Of a stretch of DNA of 42,368 nucleotides, positions 6,020 through 41,000 are shown piece by piece. The position numbers and the translations under genes were made by a program. The notes beneath the pieces are model-generated. The model was given only the letters and a program-made list of their open reading frames with translations, was not told where the DNA came from and did no database searches. This DNA is from a virus (lineage: Duplodnaviria > Heunggongvirae > Uroviricota > Caudoviricetes), in IMG/VR virus record IMGVR_UViG_2737471817_000007, positions 1-42,368 of that record; one strand, 5' to 3'. Numbering within the stretch: the first letter of the stretch is position 1; the number at the start of each line of letters is the position of its first letter.

Positions 6020-6593
6020 CATCCGGCGCTGTGCTGGTATCTGTTGCCGTCACCGCGTCAATGTAATCCAGCACAGCGTTAAGGCGGGTTGTTTCTGCCT
6101 GCGTCAGTTTACGTCCGGCCTGCAATTTCAGTTGAATCAGACTGATGGAAGCCATTGCTGCATCAATCAGTGACTGGCGCTGTGCTTCTGCCGCTTCTAC
6201 TGCGGCACAGTGTTGTGCCTCAGTGTCGGTCACCCATTTCTCACCATCCCATTTATCATATGGCGTTAACGGGGCGATAGTGGTTGTATTTTCTGGATAG
6301 TCGCCTGGTGCTGTGATTTCTTTGGCATCTCCCGTTTCGGTGTTATAGACGATTTCACCGCGATGGTCTGGCACATATTCCCATGAGTTAAAATCTGCAG
6401 AACGGCAGATTGCATAACCAGCTTTGTATGCGCCTGGAGCATCTAAACAGGAACATGCCGGAATACCGACACCCACAGCAAGATATTCAGTTGATGTGAA
6501 AATATATTCCCGTGTTTCACCATCATAGTTATAAACAGTAATATTTCCTGCCTGAGTGGCGATAAATTCGTTATTTAATACGGCGTAATCCAT
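5991..6593 (-). CDS. Tail-fibre assembly protein (Tfa / Mu U-like)
   Basis: 200 aa; C-terminal DTSTAPDVIWPELP motif; directly downstream of the fibre gene. Confidence 0.7.
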   Translation of the reverse strand: MDYAVLNNEFIATQAGNITVYNYDGETREYIFTSTEYLAVGVGIPACSCLDAPGAYKAGYAICRSADFNSWEYVPDHRGEIVYNTETGDAKEITAPGDYPENTTTIAPLTPYDKWDGEKWVTDTEAQHCAAVEAAEAQRQSLIDAAMASISLIQLKLQAGRKLTQAETTRLNAVLDYIDAVTATDTSTAPDVIWPELPEA

Positions 6594-12983: not shown

Positions 12984-14816
12984 TTACCTAAATCTGGTGT
13001 ACCCAACATCGTGATTAATATCAATGCCACTGGAACGTGTTTCCGTAACCCGCATACCTGGTGGCATATTCATAAATGAAACCTTGATCTCGCCATCAAC
13101 TTTTGGCGCGATAGCTTTGTTAATCATGAAGGGATTCGGGCCTGTGGCATCGGAGGCGTTGTTTGACTGAGCCGGATCTACCGCCGGATAAGGTGTGTAT
13201 CCCCGCGTCGGTATTCCCGTCCCATAAGCATCATAAGCACCCGCGCCCCACTGCGCAGAGTTAATGGCATCGACCGTGTCACCGGAACTGTCGGTAAACC
13301 ACTCAATAATTGGCTTCAGCTTGTCCCACATATCCTGAAACCACTTAACAACCGGCCCCCAGTTATTGATCACCATCCCCAGCGGCGACCAGGCAAAAAC
13401 TTTCTTAAGGAGTTCCCAGCCAGCCTCAAAATAAGGACCAATGGTTTCCCAGAGTTTCTTAAAATAAGGTCCGACAACATCCCAGTTAGTGATAATTAAT
13501 CCCGCAGCCAGGGCTATCGCCGTCGCAATCATGCCAATCGGCGTCATCGACATGATCCTGCTGACAATACTGATGGCACCGCCAACGCCCATCAATCCCA
13601 GTTTCAGAATCGCAAGACCGGCAGCAAGCCCGACGACGCCGCGAATAACCCGGGGATTTTCATCCGCAAACTTCGTGAATTTTTCCCCCAACTCCCCCAG
13701 CCATTGCGTGATATTTTTAGCGTCACCAGAAAATGCGCCGCCAATAGCTGCAAGACCGTTAGTTGCGGTCCCCGTCATTGCCTCCCACAGGTTGGACAGC
13801 GTACCAAGCTGAGCCTGAACACGTTTATTCAGGCTGGCCTGTTTATTCATCTTCTGCTGGATCTGATCGTAGCCATCCTTTCCTTTATCGATCAGGGCAT
13901 TGACCACCTGAAGGGTTTCGGCATCATCACCAAATATTGCCTTAAGTACGCCTGTTCGCTTAACGTCGGTCAGTTTTCGCAACTTTGCCAGTTGCCTGAA
14001 CATGTTATCAAGACCGCCAAAACTTCCTTTGCCGTCAGTAAAATCGAGCTGTACCCCGAGTTTCTGGCGGGCCATGACTTTATTGACGTCCCTGATTTTC
14101 TTAACACTTAATCCGGACTGGATAACTTTTCGCAGGGCATTACCTGCCGACTCCCCGTTCATCCCCATCTGATCCATCATGACGCTGATGGGGGCAAGGC
14201 TCTGTGCAGCCTGAAGACCGTCCTTGTTCACCATCTTCAGAACAGAACTGGTTTTAGTGAAGAAGGACAACATGTTGGTATCGTCAACGCCCAGATAAAA
14301 CGCCTTCTGGATAGTGTCGAACAGCCCCATCATGTCTTCTGACGCCGTTCCGGTAGCATCCTGCATCTTTGCAGCAAACTCAGCAGCCGCTTCCGGTGTT
14401 TTTTTCAGTTGTACCGCAAGATAAGCTGTCGCTTTACCCACACCACCCAGAATGTTTTCTGCCGGGATCCCCTGACGCACCAGCATCTGCATCATGTTCT
14501 GGAAATCAGCCGTTGTACCGGGTAGCTGGTTACCCAGGCCAATAGCCAGTTTATTGATGTCCTGAAAGCTCTTTCCAACCTCGCCGTTCGCATCCATCAT
14601 GGCGACTTTCAGCCCGGTAGCGGCGTTTTCCTGATCGGCATAAGATTTCAGGGAAAGCGTCAGCCCCGCTGCCAGTCCTCCACCAAGCGCCAGCCCACCC
14701 TGTGACGCTTCTTCCGCCTGGCGTTTAAATCCCCGGATTTTCTTTTGCATTTTCGACAGCGCGGGAGAAAGCCTGTCGACACCGGTGATCAACGCCTTAA
14801 GCTCAAATTCAGCCAT
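12984..14816 (-). CDS. Tail tape measure protein
   Basis: 610 aa, Ala/Gly-rich with hydrophobic segments, downstream of the frameshifted chaperone pair. Confidence 0.75.
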   Translation of the reverse strand: MAEFELKALITGVDRLSPALSKMQKKIRGFKRQAEEASQGGLALGGGLAAGLTLSLKSYADQENAATGLKVAMMDANGEVGKSFQDINKLAIGLGNQLPGTTADFQNMMQMLVRQGIPAENILGGVGKATAYLAVQLKKTPEAAAEFAAKMQDATGTASEDMMGLFDTIQKAFYLGVDDTNMLSFFTKTSSVLKMVNKDGLQAAQSLAPISVMMDQMGMNGESAGNALRKVIQSGLSVKKIRDVNKVMARQKLGVQLDFTDGKGSFGGLDNMFRQLAKLRKLTDVKRTGVLKAIFGDDAETLQVVNALIDKGKDGYDQIQQKMNKQASLNKRVQAQLGTLSNLWEAMTGTATNGLAAIGGAFSGDAKNITQWLGELGEKFTKFADENPRVIRGVVGLAAGLAILKLGLMGVGGAISIVSRIMSMTPIGMIATAIALAAGLIITNWDVVGPYFKKLWETIGPYFEAGWELLKKVFAWSPLGMVINNWGPVVKWFQDMWDKLKPIIEWFTDSSGDTVDAINSAQWGAGAYDAYGTGIPTRGYTPYPAVDPAQSNNASDATGPNPFMINKAIAPKVDGEIKVSFMNMPPGMRVTETRSSGIDINHDVGYTRFR

Positions 14817-34865: not shown

Positions 34866-34955
34866 ACAATATGTACCTCCAGTGTACATATTACATGATT
34901 AAAATGAACCTTCAAGATACTTGTACCTTAACGGTACAAGGGTTTTAATTTCGTT
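34866..34955. promoter_or_regulatory. Immunity switch: divergent promoters with palindromic operators
   Basis: atatgtac-N7-gtacatat (about 34869-34891) and cttgtacc-N5-ggtacaag (about 34919-34939). Confidence 0.55.
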
Positions 34956-35630
34956 ATGAAAACAATCCATGACATCCGGCGGTCTAACGCCAGAAAACTG
35001 AGAGATGGTGTTGGCGGGAATTCTTCCTTTGCCACTATGATTGATCGCGAGCCAACCCAGACCAGCAGGTTTATGGGAGATGGTGCTACTAAAAATATCG
35101 GTGACAGCATGGCACGACACATCGAAAAATGTTTCGACCTGCCTGTTGGATGGCTCGATCAAGAACACCAGACAACGAACATCACAAAAAAACCTGATGT
35201 TTCAATCACTAATAAACAAATCACATTAGTCCCTGTCATATCATGGGTACAGGCCGGAGCATGGAAAGAAGTTGGATATTCTGAGGTTGATTTGAGCACA
35301 GCAGAAACGTATCCCTGCCCTGTACCCTGTGGGGAAATGACTTATATCTTGCGGGTGATAGGTGATTCAATGATTGATGAGTACCGCCCGGGAGACATGA
35401 TTTTTGTCGATCCTGAAGTACCAGCCTGCCACGGTGACGACGTTATTGCATTGATGCACGATACAGGTGAAACCACCTTCAAAAGGTTGATAGAAGATGG
35501 GACACAGCGTTATCTCAAAGCGTTAAACCCAAACTGGCCTGAGCCTTACATTAAGATCAACGGTAATTGCTCTATAATTGGAACTGTGATTTTCTCAGGA
35601 AAACCAAGAAGATACAAAATCAAAGCCTAA
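34956..35630 (+). CDS. cI: CI-type prophage repressor (HTH + S24 LexA-like peptidase domain)
   Basis: 224 aa; C-terminal GDSM ... FKRL Ser/Lys dyad region typical of S24 autoproteolytic repressors. Confidence 0.75.
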   Translation: MKTIHDIRRSNARKLRDGVGGNSSFATMIDREPTQTSRFMGDGATKNIGDSMARHIEKCFDLPVGWLDQEHQTTNITKKPDVSITNKQITLVPVISWVQAGAWKEVGYSEVDLSTAETYPCPVPCGEMTYILRVIGDSMIDEYRPGDMIFVDPEVPACHGDDVIALMHDTGETTFKRLIEDGTQRYLKALNPNWPEPYIKINGNCSIIGTVIFSGKPRRYKIKA

Positions 35631-35669: not shown

Positions 35670-35706
35670 TTGACAATGTACCCATGAGATACATAATGTA
35701 CCCAAG
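35670..35706 (+). promoter_or_regulatory. PL-like early-left promoter with overlapping TGTACCC operator repeats
   Basis: TTGACA, 16-17 bp spacer, cATAATg; tgtaccca repeated across the spacer and downstream. Confidence 0.5.
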
Positions 35707-35786
35707 AGAAACAACGAACAGGCAGGACGCCCACGAAGTAGCCGCCTGGGGCATATAAAGTCTAGGGTGATTCGTTAGCAACAAAA

Positions 35787-35819
35787 AAGCGCCCTACAGG
35801 ACGCTTAGCTCTTTAACAA
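35787..35819 (+). promoter_or_regulatory. Hairpin plus rrn-type boxA (GCTCTTTAACAA): candidate antitermination (nut-like) site
   Basis: 35808-35819 is identical to the ribosomal-operon boxA core; preceded by a short stem-loop as in rrn leaders. Confidence 0.45.
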
Positions 35820-35864: not shown

Positions 35865-36071
35865 ATGCACAAAACAGAACCCACAATCGTCGCGCCCGGA
35901 TACACAAATGAGGAAATTTACGAGTGGATGGCAAAGAAGCTGGCAGCTATAAACCAGCTTCGTGAAGTGCTGTCTTATCGACAGGAAACAATAGACTCCT
36001 TAAAAAAACTGGATCAGGAAATCACGGTTTTATCACAGGATGTTACTTTAGATATTGTGCAGACAAATTAG
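35865..36071 (+). CDS. Hypothetical first early-left protein (about 68 aa)
   Basis: GAGGAGG Shine-Dalgarno 5 nt before the ATG at 35865; the ORF track starts at 35850. Confidence 0.4.
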   Translation: MHKTEPTIVAPGYTNEEIYEWMAKKLAAINQLREVLSYRQETIDSLKKLDQEITVLSQDVTLDIVQTN

Positions 36072-36477
36072 GATCCCATTCATTTTCGTCAAAATCATCA
36101 AAGTGATGAATTTGTGATCTCCAGTCTCGATAATCTAAAAATTTCTGGGCGGTTACGCTTATTTTATCAAGTGTGAGTTCATCCTGAATTGAAAGAAGAA
36201 GTTCATCAAATTTCATCTCATTAATCTGTTTTGGCATCCAGTGATGCTTCATCAGAATAAGGTGAACCAGAGCCTTTTTCCCATTCAACTGATTATAGGG
36301 AGTGCCGAATTTCTTCCGGTGCTCATGTAAGACAAGGTCCAGAAGAGTAAGTAATGTTGCCCTTGATTCCACTTTGCTTATTTCGACTGATGACACTACC
36401 CCACTGATTTCAATGCCCCGATACTTTCCAACATTTTCACAGTGGGATTTGTACAGCGTGTAGATATTACCGGACAT
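36043..36477 (-). CDS. Low-GC moron protein of unknown function, antisense to the early-left operon
   Basis: 144 aa; AT-rich; own Shine-Dalgarno; direct repeats in its upstream region. Confidence 0.55.
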   Translation of the reverse strand: MSGNIYTLYKSHCENVGKYRGIEISGVVSSVEISKVESRATLLTLLDLVLHEHRKKFGTPYNQLNGKKALVHLILMKHHWMPKQINEMKFDELLLSIQDELTLDKISVTAQKFLDYRDWRSQIHHFDDFDENEWDPNLSAQYLK

Positions 36478-36619
36478 TTCTTTTCCTTTTGCGTTGTTGG
36501 GGATAACCAGATTAACCGAATCCTTGTTGTTGGGGAATAACCAGGTCCACCTCGCCTGATGTGGCTAAAAGCAGGCACATAACAGCTAAGTATTTTTAAC
36601 CAGAGAGAATCCTTAGCGT

Positions 36620-36930
36620 TGTGGTGAATGCGGCTCAGCGCACGCGGGTTAAGGTTGAGGCTGACAGTCGACCTTCTGTGGATACCCACCCGTCTGGTGT
36701 GCAACCTTCGCCAGGCACCGGGAGGCACCCGGCACCACAACTTTATGCTGTGTGTAGTCCTGGAGGTACCAGTTTGTACCCTTGCTTCCGGCTGGTACCG
36801 TCCTTTTTACAAAACAGAGAAGAGCATCACCGGACGACGGGCTCATAACCCAATCCATCCGGGCGGCTGCCACCGCAGGTGTTCTTCTCTGTTTTGTGGA
36901 GAAACTAATCGGCCTTGCAGGGTCGATATG
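36620..36930. other. GC-rich untranslated region with nested inverted repeats and operator-like TGTACC motifs
   Basis: IR acaaaacagagaagag (36809-36824) / ttcttctctgttttgt (36883-36898); ggtaccag ... ctggtacc (36765-36799); ctggaggtacc resembles operator O1. Confidence 0.45.
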
Positions 36931-36945
36931 ATGAGGAGCAGCAAA

Positions 36946-37308
36946 ATGGCTAGCGAACGCAGTACTGATGTGCAGGCATTTATCGGGGAGCTGGACGGCG
37001 GCGTATTTGAAACCAAAATCGGCGCAGTTCTCAGTGAAGTCGCTTCCGGTGTGATGAACACGAAAACCAAAGGTAAGGTCTCACTCAACCTGGAAATCGA
37101 ACCATTTGATGAGAACCGTGTGAAAATCAAACACAAACTCTCATATGTTCGCCCGACTAACCGCGGGAAAATTTCCGAAGAAGACACCACCGAAACGCCG
37201 ATGTATGTCAATCGCGGTGGTCGCCTGACTATTCTGCAGGAAGACCAGGGACAGTTACTGACTCTTGCCGGTGAACCTGACGGAAAACTCCGCGCAGCAG
37301 GTCGTTAA
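36946..37308 (+). CDS. Hypothetical early protein, same length as CPS-53 YfdP (120 aa)
   Basis: AGGAG Shine-Dalgarno before the ATG at 36946; the upstream part of track ORF 36628-37308 is Arg/Cys-rich read-through of the GC-rich region. Confidence 0.5.
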   Translation: MASERSTDVQAFIGELDGGVFETKIGAVLSEVASGVMNTKTKGKVSLNLEIEPFDENRVKIKHKLSYVRPTNRGKISEEDTTETPMYVNRGGRLTILQEDQGQLLTLAGEPDGKLRAAGR

Positions 37309-37373: not shown

Positions 37374-38198
37374 ATGTCTCAGAACTTAGACGCAACCGCA
37401 ATTAATCAAATCCATGCCCTTATTTCTGCTCAGGGTGTTAATGAAATTATCAGTAAGATTGGTGCCGATGCTGTGGCATTGCCTGAGAATTTCCGCATTC
37501 ATGATCTGGAAAAATTTAATTTAAATCGCTTCCGTTTCCGTGGTGCGCTTTCCACTGCCAGCATCGATGACTTTACCCGTTATTCTAAAGATCTTGCAGA
37601 TGAAGGCACCCGCTGCTTTATCGATGCTGATAATATGCGTGCCGTCAGTGTGCTTAACCTGGGTACTATTGATGAACCAGGTCACGCAGATAACACCGCC
37701 ACACTCAAACTGAAAAAGACAGCACCGTTCTCTGCTCTGTTGTCTGTTAACGGCGAGCGTAACTCCCAGAAGTCACTGGCAGAATGGATTGAAGACTGGG
37801 CCGACTATCTTGTGGGCTTTGATGCTAATGGTGACGCTATTCAGGCAACAAAAGCGGCTGCGGCTGTCCGTAAAATCACGATTGAAGCAAACCAGACCGC
37901 TGATTTTGAAGATAATGACTTCAGCGGCAAACGCTCCCTGATGGAGTCTGTCGAAGCGAAGACCAAAGACATTATGCCAGTGGCATTTGAATTTAAATGC
38001 GTTCCGTTTGAAGGTCTGAAAGAACGTCCGTTTAAATTACGCCTCAGTATTATCACTGGCGATCGTCCTGTACTGGTTCTGCGCATTATTCAGCTGGAGG
38101 CGGTGCAGGAAGAAATGGCTAACGAATTTCGTGATCTGCTTGTTGAGAAATTCAAGGACAGCAAAGTAGAAACCTTTATTGGTACTTTCACCGCCTGA
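37374..38198 (+). CDS. Hypothetical early protein, same length as CPS-53 YfdQ (274 aa)
   Basis: Position and length in a YfdP-Q-R-S-T-like series; similarity asserted from memory, not verified. Confidence 0.5.
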
Positions 38199-38325
38199 TT
38201 TCATTACTGCAAATGCCCTTGCGGGGGCATTTATGGAAACGTAATTTACTCAATAATCGCCGGATGGTGAGGGATTCTTTTTACCAGAATTCAGCGCGGT
38301 GCAGCGCATATACGTGGAGAACAAA

Positions 38326-38862
38326 ATGTCATTTATTAAAACTTTTTCCGGGAAGCATTTTTATTATGACAGGATAAATAAAGACGACATCGATATTAAC
38401 GATATCGCGGTTTCCCTTTCAAATATCTGTCGCTTTGCCGGTCATCTTTCGCACTTCTACAGCGTCGCCCAACATGCGGTTCTTTGCAGCCAGTTGGTGC
38501 CGCAGGAATTTGCTTTTGAAGCGTTAATGCATGATGCAACAGAAGCGTATTGCCAGGACATTCCCGCACCACTGAAACGCCTTCTTCCTGACTATAAACA
38601 AATGGAAGAAAAAATAGACGCCGTAATCCGTGAGAAATACGGGTTACCCCCAGTTATGAGTACGCCCGTGAAATATGCCGATCTCATCATGCTGGCAACC
38701 GAACGCCGCGATCTCGGGCTTGATGATGGCTCTTTCTGGCCTGTACTGGAAGGTATCCCGGCAACAGAGATGTTCAACGTGATTCCACTGGCACCGGGCC
38801 ATGCCTACGGGATGTTTATGGAACGCTTTAACGAGTTATCGGAGTTACGCAAATGCGCATGA
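38326..38862 (+). CDS. HD-domain phosphohydrolase (YfdR-like 5'-deoxynucleotidase)
   Basis: H ... HD ... D metal-binding pattern (AQHAVLCS, MHDATEAY); 178 aa from MSFIKTF. Confidence 0.6.
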   Translation: MSFIKTFSGKHFYYDRINKDDIDINDIAVSLSNICRFAGHLSHFYSVAQHAVLCSQLVPQEFAFEALMHDATEAYCQDIPAPLKRLLPDYKQMEEKIDAVIREKYGLPPVMSTPVKYADLIMLATERRDLGLDDGSFWPVLEGIPATEMFNVIPLAPGHAYGMFMERFNELSELRKCA

Positions 38863-40910: not shown

Positions 40911-40969
40911 CTTATTGATTTAAATGGTGCCGATAATAGGAGTCGAACCTACGACCTTCGCATTACGAA
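40903..40969. repeat. attR: phage/tRNA junction copy of the attachment repeat
   Basis: Matches 104-170; lies inside the tRNA 3' half. Confidence 0.75.
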
Positions 40970-41000
40970 TGCGCTGCTCTACCAACTGAGCTATATCGGC
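40925..41000 (-). tRNA. thrW: tRNA-Thr (anticodon CGU)
   Basis: Reverse complement reads GCCGATATAGCTCAGTTGGTAGAGCAGCGCATTCGTAATGCGAAGGTCGTAGGTTCGACTCCTATTATCGGCACCA: cloverleaf with CGT anticodon and CCA end. Confidence 0.85.

Follow-up and report, generated by a model that had tools for sequence, protein, structure and literature searches.

Organization of the region upstream of yfdP

The DNA analysed here, hereafter the window, is the whole stretch of 42,368 nucleotides of IMG/VR virus record IMGVR_UViG_2737471817_000007 (Caudoviricetes) and is a prophage of the SfIV/SfV type. The subject of this study is the region immediately upstream of the gene yfdP, which an earlier note had described as an untranslated stretch with inverted repeats and operator-like motifs, possibly a distal operator, a structured RNA, a processing site or a small insertion resembling a miniature inverted-repeat transposable element (MITE). 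We found that positions 36618-36945 are non-coding and are read as RNA on the plus strand, in two modules: E1, the core of a small RNA (sRNA), and E2, a three-way junction in the leader of yfdP. Shigella phage SfIV is 100% identical to the window across the region and SfV is 98.5% identical, and the region is also kept in SfII and ST64B. It was found in 2859 of the 5426 complete E. coli genomes.

Three inverted repeats were observed in the region. The 16-bp repeat described earlier lies inside arms at 36809-36833 and 36873-36897 (25 nt, 84% complementary, 39 nt apart), and the ggtaccag...ctggtacc hairpin, likewise reported before, has perfect 8-bp arms (GGTACCAG / CTGGTACC, 36765-36772 / 36792-36799). 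A third repeat (GTTGTGGTG / CACCACAAC, 36618-36626 / 36733-36741; 9 bp, 106 nt apart) had been missed. The earlier note had also missed that there are two separate RNA modules, with the ggtaccag hairpin serving as terminator of the first and the 16-bp repeat forming the base of the second. Among the options that it offered, the structured RNA is borne out by folding and covariation, and the processing site enters our account only as a proposed step at E2. Of the checks proposed in that note, folding, Rfam and BLASTN settled the nature of the region.

E1, a divergent STnc100-like core

The structured core of E1 occupies 36618..36741 on the plus strand and was recognized by a match to the Rfam family STnc100 and by covariation of its closing stem P1 and of a pseudoknot. 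The match was the single meaningful one of a permissive Rfam scan, in which the STnc100 model (RF02076) aligned with 36588-36810 (plus strand) over model positions 1-206 of 206 at 38.4 bits (E = 1.1e-6). The motifs of the STnc100 core all occur at 36618-36741: a closing stem, the GGUGAAU block, P2 as a hairpin whose loop is CUNNGCG, and the hairpin CACCGGGAGGCACCCGGCACC. The same order of parts was observed in 96 distinct cores, given here with the window coordinates: stem P1 (36618-26 / 36733-41, with closing strands GUUGUGGUG / CACCACAAC), AAU (36627-29), P2 (36630-45), a short strand, variable hairpins, P4 (36693-99 / 36709-15), P5 (CCGGG-AGGCA-CCCGG, 36718-32) and the 3' strand of P1. Beyond the invariant GGUG / CACC, the outer three pairs of P1 are paired in 97, 93 and 80% of these cores, with several pair types. 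Among the matches listed, more than 120 IMG/VR contigs contain CACCGGGARGCACCCGGCACC, a 21-nt motif, without change.

A helix of at least 6 bp joins the P4 loop to a strand lying 31-35 nt into the core, 3' of P2, in 81 of the 96 cores and in 33 sequence versions, examples of which are CCAGUC/GACUGG, AUCAGC/GCUGAU and AGACUGACAAA/UUUGUCAGUCU. In the window this helix is formed by AAGGUUG (36651-57) and CAACCUU (36702-08). Because such a covarying P4-loop helix recurs in so many of the cores, E1 is a pseudoknotted RNA. The pseudoknot was derived in this analysis and is absent from the STnc100 model of Rfam.

By their P2 and P5 the copies were sorted into three types. Type A copies have a P2 of the form CCCC...GGGG, and those tested pass the STnc100 threshold with 52-161 bits. 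Type B copies have GCG...CGC in P2 and score below the threshold; they include the window copy and the copy located just before tciA in phage P1, whose closing strands are GUUGCGGUG / CACCGCAAC. Type C copies have a different P5.

STnc100, PasD1 and PasD2 share with the window copy the GGUGAAU and CACCGGGAGGCACCCGGCACC blocks, stems P1, P2 and P5, the pseudoknot, an intrinsic terminator at the 3' end and the location in a prophage. They differ from it in P2, which is CCCC...GGGG in the canonical copies and GCG...CGC in the window, and in their position: canonical STnc100 and PasD copies are late-region elements, found downstream of Q, tRNAs or stx and ahead of nanS-p or a holin gene, whereas the window copy lies in an early-left leader. 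Hfq dependence was shown for PasD. A common ancestor of STnc100 and PasD has recently been proposed (bioRxiv 10.64898/2026.05.13.724894). On these motifs E1 is a divergent member of one prophage sRNA superfamily with STnc100, PasD and sRNA-17, an sRNA of E. coli K1 that is compared below. Three separately named sRNAs are linked in this way and a shared pseudoknot is added to their fold.

The core is followed by a single-stranded linker (UUUAUGCUGUGUGUAGUCCU, 36742..36761, plus strand), which is unpaired or weakly paired in the minimum free energy (MFE) fold and of which UGCUGUGUGUAGUC is conserved across genera. This linker is a candidate seed region, a role modelled on PasD and STnc100 (bioRxiv 10.64898/2026.05.13.724894). 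When the linker was compared with the start regions in the window, no matches were found at real starts, and the matches beyond the shuffled range carry no meaning because they are antisense to real genes.

The terminator and the predicted sRNA

An intrinsic (Rho-independent) terminator was found at 36762..36808 on the plus strand, with a core stem formed by GGUACCAG / CUGGUACC (36765-72 / 36792-99) and a U-run at 36804-08. The STnc100 model of Rfam aligns its own terminator onto this ggtaccag hairpin. It would form the 3' end of a predicted sRNA, about 190 nt long (36618 to 36807), that consists of E1, the linker and the terminator itself. Together, E1 and this terminator add a new and divergent member to a known kind of sRNA. 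In other genera as well, 19 of 20 distinct regions upstream of E2 end in a GC-rich hairpin with a U-run, and the stem sequences vary among them. A resemblance of GGCGGUACC / GCUCUUUUUAC to ops or boxA was considered and judged to be merely terminator stem and U-run.

The closest described RNA is sRNA-17 of E. coli K1 RS218, which was mapped as 193 nt by 5'/3' rapid amplification of cDNA ends (RACE) and confirmed by Northern blotting in an mEp460-like prophage (PMC7719688). Its sequence begins with GUUGUGGUGAAU and ends with ...CUGGUACCGCUCUUUU, and in the supplementary alignment the query starts with gttgtggtgaatgcgcaggc and its reverse complement ends with ...ctggtaccgctctttt (PMC7719688). 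In the homologous locus L128 the sRNA-17 ends were found exactly 193 nt apart, the window equivalent being about 190 nt, and the 3' end determined by RACE maps to the same place as the window terminator. Both RNAs occupy the same slot upstream of E2 and yfdP in a prophage of the SfV/mEp460 type, share the 5' end sequence GUUGUGGUGAAUGCG and the closing strand CACCACAAC, and have a nearly identical GGUACCAG...CUGGUACC terminator, the 3' half of the query being 96.5% identical to mEp460. On the other hand, P5 is GCCGGAGAUCAGCACCGG in sRNA-17 and CCGGGAGGCACCCGG in the window, and the core interior and the linker, the presumed seed, also differ, such that the two RNAs are not identical over their whole length. 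The mEp460, Stx2c and cdtI phages share with the window only the part from 36761 onwards (query position 202; the linker end and terminator), and upstream of this they have a core of type C whose ends (GUUGUGGUGAAU...CACCACAAC) are the same and whose interior is another.

ArcA binding was reported upstream of sRNA-17, and deletion of this sRNA raised yfdP by 2^6.6 (about 95-fold) and also raised yfdR (PMC7719688). Neither ArcA control nor the reported targets can be transferred to the window copy. The rise of yfdP and yfdR, published as targets of sRNA-17, looks like a cis effect of terminator loss.

The position of E1 in front of a terminator also allows a different reading, in which E1 is a cis-acting, riboswitch-like or factor-binding aptamer that governs the terminator 20 nt downstream, and hence entry into yfdP-xis-int, with the sRNA as a by-product. 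The complex pseudoknotted fold with its near-invariant junctions (GGUGAAU and CACCGGGAGGCACCCGGCACC) and covarying helices would suit a sensor, as would the arrangement of most copies, which are followed by a terminator and then by a co-oriented open reading frame (ORF; holin, nanS-p-like or yfdP). In phage P1 the core abuts the ribosome binding site (RBS) of tciA, where AACCUUAUU / AAUGAGGUU can, by eye, sequester the Shine-Dalgarno sequence. However, inspection by eye revealed no antiterminator alternative that is conserved, and each copy may have a terminator of another sequence; pairing between E1 and the terminator that could act in antitermination was found only in some copies with a GCCCCUCUCCGGAGGGGC terminator and is not general. 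At least 17 of 108 copies have a promoter of the TTGAC-N17-TAAATT type that would start the RNA at P1, and these copies behave as independent genes. PasD is a stable, Hfq-dependent sRNA with many partners in RIL-seq (PMC8550237). A sensor role for E1 is on balance unlikely. That we know of no ligand candidate for E1 counts against it as well.

E2, a three-way-junction RNA in the yfdP leader

The second module, E2 (36809..36897, plus strand), was identified as a three-way junction from its fold, from covariation and from a strand-specific model. Its basal stem P1 (36809-28 / 36878-97) has 20 bp and contains the 16-bp inverted repeat, the P2 arm (36830-62) bears the hairpin GGG-CUCAUAA-CCC at 36839-51, which consists of a 3-bp G-C stem and a 7-nt loop, and P3 is formed by 36863-66 / 36873-76. 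Folding, one of the checks suggested in the earlier note, gave an MFE of -62.5 kcal/mol for 36800-36950 against -41.7 +/- 3.8 for shuffled sequences (z = -5.46), and none of the 200 shuffles was as good.

Twenty-six distinct E2 sequences, retrieved with the apex pattern ACGGGCUCAUAAYCCAAUCC, were aligned (alignment A1). They derive from E. coli phages, Citrobacter, Enterobacter, Kosakonia, Mixta, Buttiauxella, Phytobacter, Leclercia, Pseudescherichia, Pseudocitrobacter, Erwinia and the e14 prophage of K-12, and overall E2 is kept in prophages of at least 12 genera of Enterobacterales. In A1, 96.5% of the cells are paired and 11 of the 34 pairs are changed on both sides. None of 500 shuffles matched the observed paired cells, doubly changed pairs or covariation score, and in the slid controls just 37-50% of cells were paired. 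The apex is identical among the A1 matches because it was the search pattern; the information that these matches add is that all three helices around the apex vary and covary. The 20-bp stem is 95% paired among the 26 sequences and the length of P3 varies between about 10 and 50 nt. The covariance model R1, derived from A1, gave 116.7 bits on the plus strand of the window and 42 on the minus strand, and the same asymmetry was observed elsewhere. The permissive Rfam scan, a second suggested check that had returned the sub-threshold STnc100 match for E1, gave no family for E2. With no Rfam family and no mention in the literature searched, E2 appears to be undescribed.

Downstream of E2 the sequence GUGGAGAA (36896..36903, plus strand) is conserved, GGAGAA being present after E2 in 25 of the 26 A1 rows and GGAGAT in the remaining one. 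It looks like a vestige or stump of the 5' end of a following E1 (GUGGUGAA), i.e., a mark of the module boundary. A small hairpin in the MFE fold (AUCGGCCU-UGCA-GGGUCGAU, 36908..36927, plus strand) lies just 5' of the RBS of yfdP, and equivalent hairpins (CGGCGGUGGCAGCCGCC) occur in other genera. We also considered pairing between CUCAU of the E2 loop and AUGAG at the yfdP start, which are complementary in many homologues; this was set aside because the homologues lack independence and SfIV has another register.

The apex of E2 invites a further reading. It has 14 nt, CGGGCUCAUAACCC, in common with the E. coli tRNA-Met gene that occurs in four copies per genome, where they form the anticodon arm. 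The tRNA-Met gene present four times per genome encodes the initiator tRNA. E2 could therefore be a functional mimic of the anticodon arm of initiator tRNA (or of tRNA-Ile2), serving as a decoy, sensor or binding site and not merely as an RNase III site, for which a VapC-type nuclease of tRNA-fMet, methionyl-tRNA synthetase (MetRS), TilS and the P site of the 30S subunit are candidate partners. The likeness consists of these 14 nt, which fold as the stem of three G-C pairs and the 7-nt loop, set among helices that vary and covary, and the loop is kept in relatives outside the apex pattern (CUCAUAA in L021, and CAU within UUCAUAU in the phage P1 copies). In Klebsiella and Raoultella lambdoid phages, moreover, a version of E2 lies in a tRNA cluster, directly after tRNA-Asn and tRNA-Arg and downstream of Q, with a short 6-7-bp 'acceptor' stem P1 ending in ...CAGGCC-N-CCA. 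Against mimicry, neither ARAGORN nor the Rfam tRNA model (RF00005) called a tRNA at E2, in the window or in the Klebsiella version. E2 has no D arm, its P3 has no T-loop motif, and in the window the 'acceptor' is a 20-bp helix within an mRNA leader. The e14 copy of K-12 has lost CAU, though e14 is defective, and a phage tRNA gene that decayed could have left the resemblance behind. Mimicry is in our view improbable as the function of E2, and the invariant copy of the initiator-tRNA anticodon arm is nevertheless a testable lead on tRNA mimicry in phage leaders.

The spurious extension of yfdP and the operator-like motifs

The true coding sequence of yfdP begins with the ATG at 36946 and ends at 37308 on the plus strand (120 aa), as in the annotation of identical sequence by the Prokaryotic Genome Annotation Pipeline (PGAP), and it is preceded by a Shine-Dalgarno sequence, GAGGAG, at 36933-38 (plus strand). 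The Arg/Cys-rich ORF to which the earlier note had referred does exist as an uninterrupted frame (36628-37308, 226 aa), and its N-terminal extension (36628..36945, plus strand) is annotated here as a 'frameshifted hypothetical protein' by PGAP and in the homologous DNA of K-12 as ymfH. These annotations, together with a 75-aa ORF at 36621-36848, would favour a coding role, with YfdP extended at its N terminus or a small YmfH-like protein produced. However, no family was found for the extension in Pfam or NCBIfam, and the PGAP fit requires a frameshift. The homologues differ in length inside the 'ORF' by 1, 2, 4, 8 and further numbers of nucleotides that are not multiples of three, and their substitutions compensate within the RNA helices. 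YfdP homologues begin at the equivalent of 36946, where MSNERLT and MSNDRMT align with MASERST. The long ORF is thus an artefact, as had been proposed, and a coding function is extremely improbable. Recognizing this would remove a mis-annotation from thousands of genomes, in which the yfdP extension, the "frameshifted hypothetical protein" and the K-12 ymfH are affected.

In the e14 prophage of K-12, ymfH (L255, 2822-3133) covers a decayed E1-terminator-E2 arrangement upstream of xisE, with a mutated P5 and UUAAUAA as the E2 loop. Overexpression of ymfH is listed as a trigger of the retron-Sen2 toxin (10.1101/2020.06.22.160242). Since ymfH covers a decayed RNA copy, this trigger could be RNA rather than protein, in which case the retron result needs rereading.

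The GTACC strings that had been taken for operator-like motifs are present and recur in the region; the operators of this phage have a different pattern. This pattern, the dyad TGTAC-N7-GTACA, occurs at 34872-34888 and 34922-34938 without mismatches, at 35677-35693 with one and at 35697-35713 with two. The two perfect dyads lie between cro and cI, and the two imperfect ones overlap a strong promoter-like site (TTGACA-16-CATAAT, 35670-97; presumed pL/OL) past the cI terminator; by sequence and position the four look like OR and pL/OL of the prophage. No site with two or fewer mismatches to the dyad was found in 36620-36930. A MITE-like insertion had been proposed as well, and terminal inverted repeats about 90 bp apart are in keeping with it. 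There are, however, 1-5 copies per genome (median 1, maximum 5), and each locus examined has the same prophage context, after a terminator and before a prophage gene. Target-site duplications were not noticed on reading the flanks, with no dedicated search made for them, and the conservation is strand-specific and RNA-like. Neither a distal repressor operator nor a mobile insertion is a credible description of the region.

Proposed function of the two modules

These observations are best explained by a prophage sRNA of about 190 nt that carries its own terminator, with E2 downstream of it in the 5' leader of yfdP, an explanation to which we assign a probability of roughly 0.7. What is established in the window are the sequence features, covariation, homology and conserved order of parts, and from these we infer insulation, action in trans and processing of E2. 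In the lysogen, transcription would stop at 36804-08 and release the sRNA. The terminator would insulate the early-left genes (yfdP, yfdQ, yfdR and onwards to xis and int) and probably shields excision together with these genes in lysogens. Like PasD, the sRNA might work in trans with Hfq, by way of its linker. Transcripts that read through would carry E2, whose long duplex could be a substrate of the RNase III type, RNase III substrates being near-perfect duplexes of about 20 bp or more. Cleavage at E2 would then detach the leader and determine how stable the yfdP mRNA is or how well it is translated, in the manner of the lambda N leader.

RNase III sites are present in the lambda N leader and in the metY-nusA leader. 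E2 resembles these in being a long duplex that lies downstream of a non-coding element and ahead of the ORF that opens an early operon. It differs from them in having no sequence similarity, and in being a three-way junction with an invariant apex that is unneeded for RNase III recognition.

Several points weigh against this explanation. E1 fails the Rfam gathering threshold for STnc100 (38.4 against 47 bits), and the fold of 36612-36812 by itself is unexceptional (z = -1.76), such that the reality of the upstream structure rests on comparative evidence. No sigma-70 promoter-like site was found in a promoter scan from 36259 to 36618, so that processing rather than transcription initiation could generate the 5' end at 36618. 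The de-repression of yfdP in RS218 could be read-through from the resistance cassette rather than terminator loss. RNase III cleavage of E2 is purely inferred, and an RNase III role leaves the invariant apical 20 nt unaccounted for. Finally, the model gives no account of how induced transcription passes the terminator.

Neighbouring genes and the sequence upstream of E1

The immunity gene cI (34956-35630) is followed by its terminator (35642-61), by the promoter-like site described above and by a small ORF (35865-36071). A gene of the ECs1072 family (36043-36477) lies on the minus strand with its own terminator at 35787-35806 (minus strand), convergent to the presumed pL transcript. Since this gene opposes that transcript, early-left transcription must cross it before reaching E1. 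Downstream of yfdP are yfdQ (DUF2303, 37374-38198) and yfdR (38299-38862), both on the plus strand, with xis and int farther downstream of yfdR. A tRNA-Thr gene at 40925-41000 on the minus strand was the only match at the Rfam gathering threshold in the whole window.

Between the ECs1072-family gene and E1, direct repeats GTTGTTGGGGATAACCAG / GTTGTTGGGGAATAACCAG were found 34 bp apart at 36488-36551. They are kept in Enterobacter and Mixta prophages and could be a regulator site or a promoter region. They are followed by an inverted repeat read from the sequence, hairpin X (GCUAAGUAUU...AAUCCUUAGC, 36585..36617, plus strand), which is flanked by CAUAAC (36579-84) and GUUGUG (36618-23). These flanks are able to extend the hairpin, and the extension would compete with stem P1 of E1.

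Relatives of the modules in other phages

Modules bounded by CACAAC ... GUUGUGG were found in many loci, and the CACAAC-hairpin-GUUGUG syntax of hairpin X was also seen in other phages. Several module hairpins hold the T-arm-like sequence GGUUCGAAUCC. STnc100 copies were also seen downstream of tRNA genes, in tandem runs of as many as four: directly after phage tRNA genes, L014 (2265-3380, minus strand) has four and L022 (3121-3798) two. In L021, E2 runs directly into GUGGUGAA, and phage P1 has two weaker E2-like elements with the loop UUCAUAU, each running straight into an E1-like GUGGUGAA. These arrangements suggest that the modules may have originated in phage tRNA clusters and been shuffled at conserved boundaries.

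In lambda, just after tR' (L256, 979-1144; NC_001416, about 44780-44945), CACAAC is followed by a hairpin (GGUAAGAGCAUUG...CAGUGCUCUUUCC) and then by GUUGUGCUGAAU...CAGCACAAC, which on the order of its parts would be a reduced form of the same module syntax. This element matches the E2 model weakly (24.7 bits), and the lambda 6S leader and post-tR' region gave nothing in Rfam, including no STnc100 match.

The broadest reading of the modules would unite E1 and E2 in a superfamily, so far unrecognised, of modular structured RNAs that might stem from tRNA genes and would occupy the operon leaders of temperate enterobacterial phages: the early-left leaders of SfV-like phages, the late leaders of Stx and lambdoid phages, the ban operon of phage P1 and the site just after tR' in lambda. 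E1 would be a fold that binds a specific ligand or protein and not a passive scaffold of the sRNA, and E2 a working mimic of the initiator-tRNA anticodon arm that binds or decoys a host or defence factor targeting tRNA-fMet (a VapC-type nuclease, MetRS or the P site). This remains speculative, and we regard it as a long shot beside the sRNA and leader described above.

Further copies were observed in other settings. The E2 version abuts the 3' CCA of tRNA-Arg or another tRNA in L004 (2500-2590), L130, L131, L248 and others, and the Klebsiella and Raoultella end, ...CAGGCC-A/G-CCA, resembles a D-armless tRNA with the anticodon CAU. In an Acidobacteriaceae metagenome-assembled genome, the 20-mer ACGGGCUCAUAACCCAAUCC was found within a stem just before an ORF (L241, 2546-2636, minus strand), two ORFs downstream of an ORF that we read from its translation as lysozyme-like. 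This match could be a distant homologue or a chance match, and it needs confirmation because about 9 chance matches to the pattern are expected in the collection. One viral contig, L205, contains both an E2 of the early-leader type (108 bits) and one of the tRNA-adjacent type (38 bits), at 6039-6143 and 14615-14681.

Finally, the interval between trnT and tciA in phage P1 (L003, 1925-2640; NC_005856, about 69.5-70.2 kb) carries, on the strand of the ban operon, a T-arm hairpin, a mini E1 and two pairs of E2-like and E1 elements. These RNA modules are antisense to the annotated plp and upl ORFs of phage P1, which may merit a second look.

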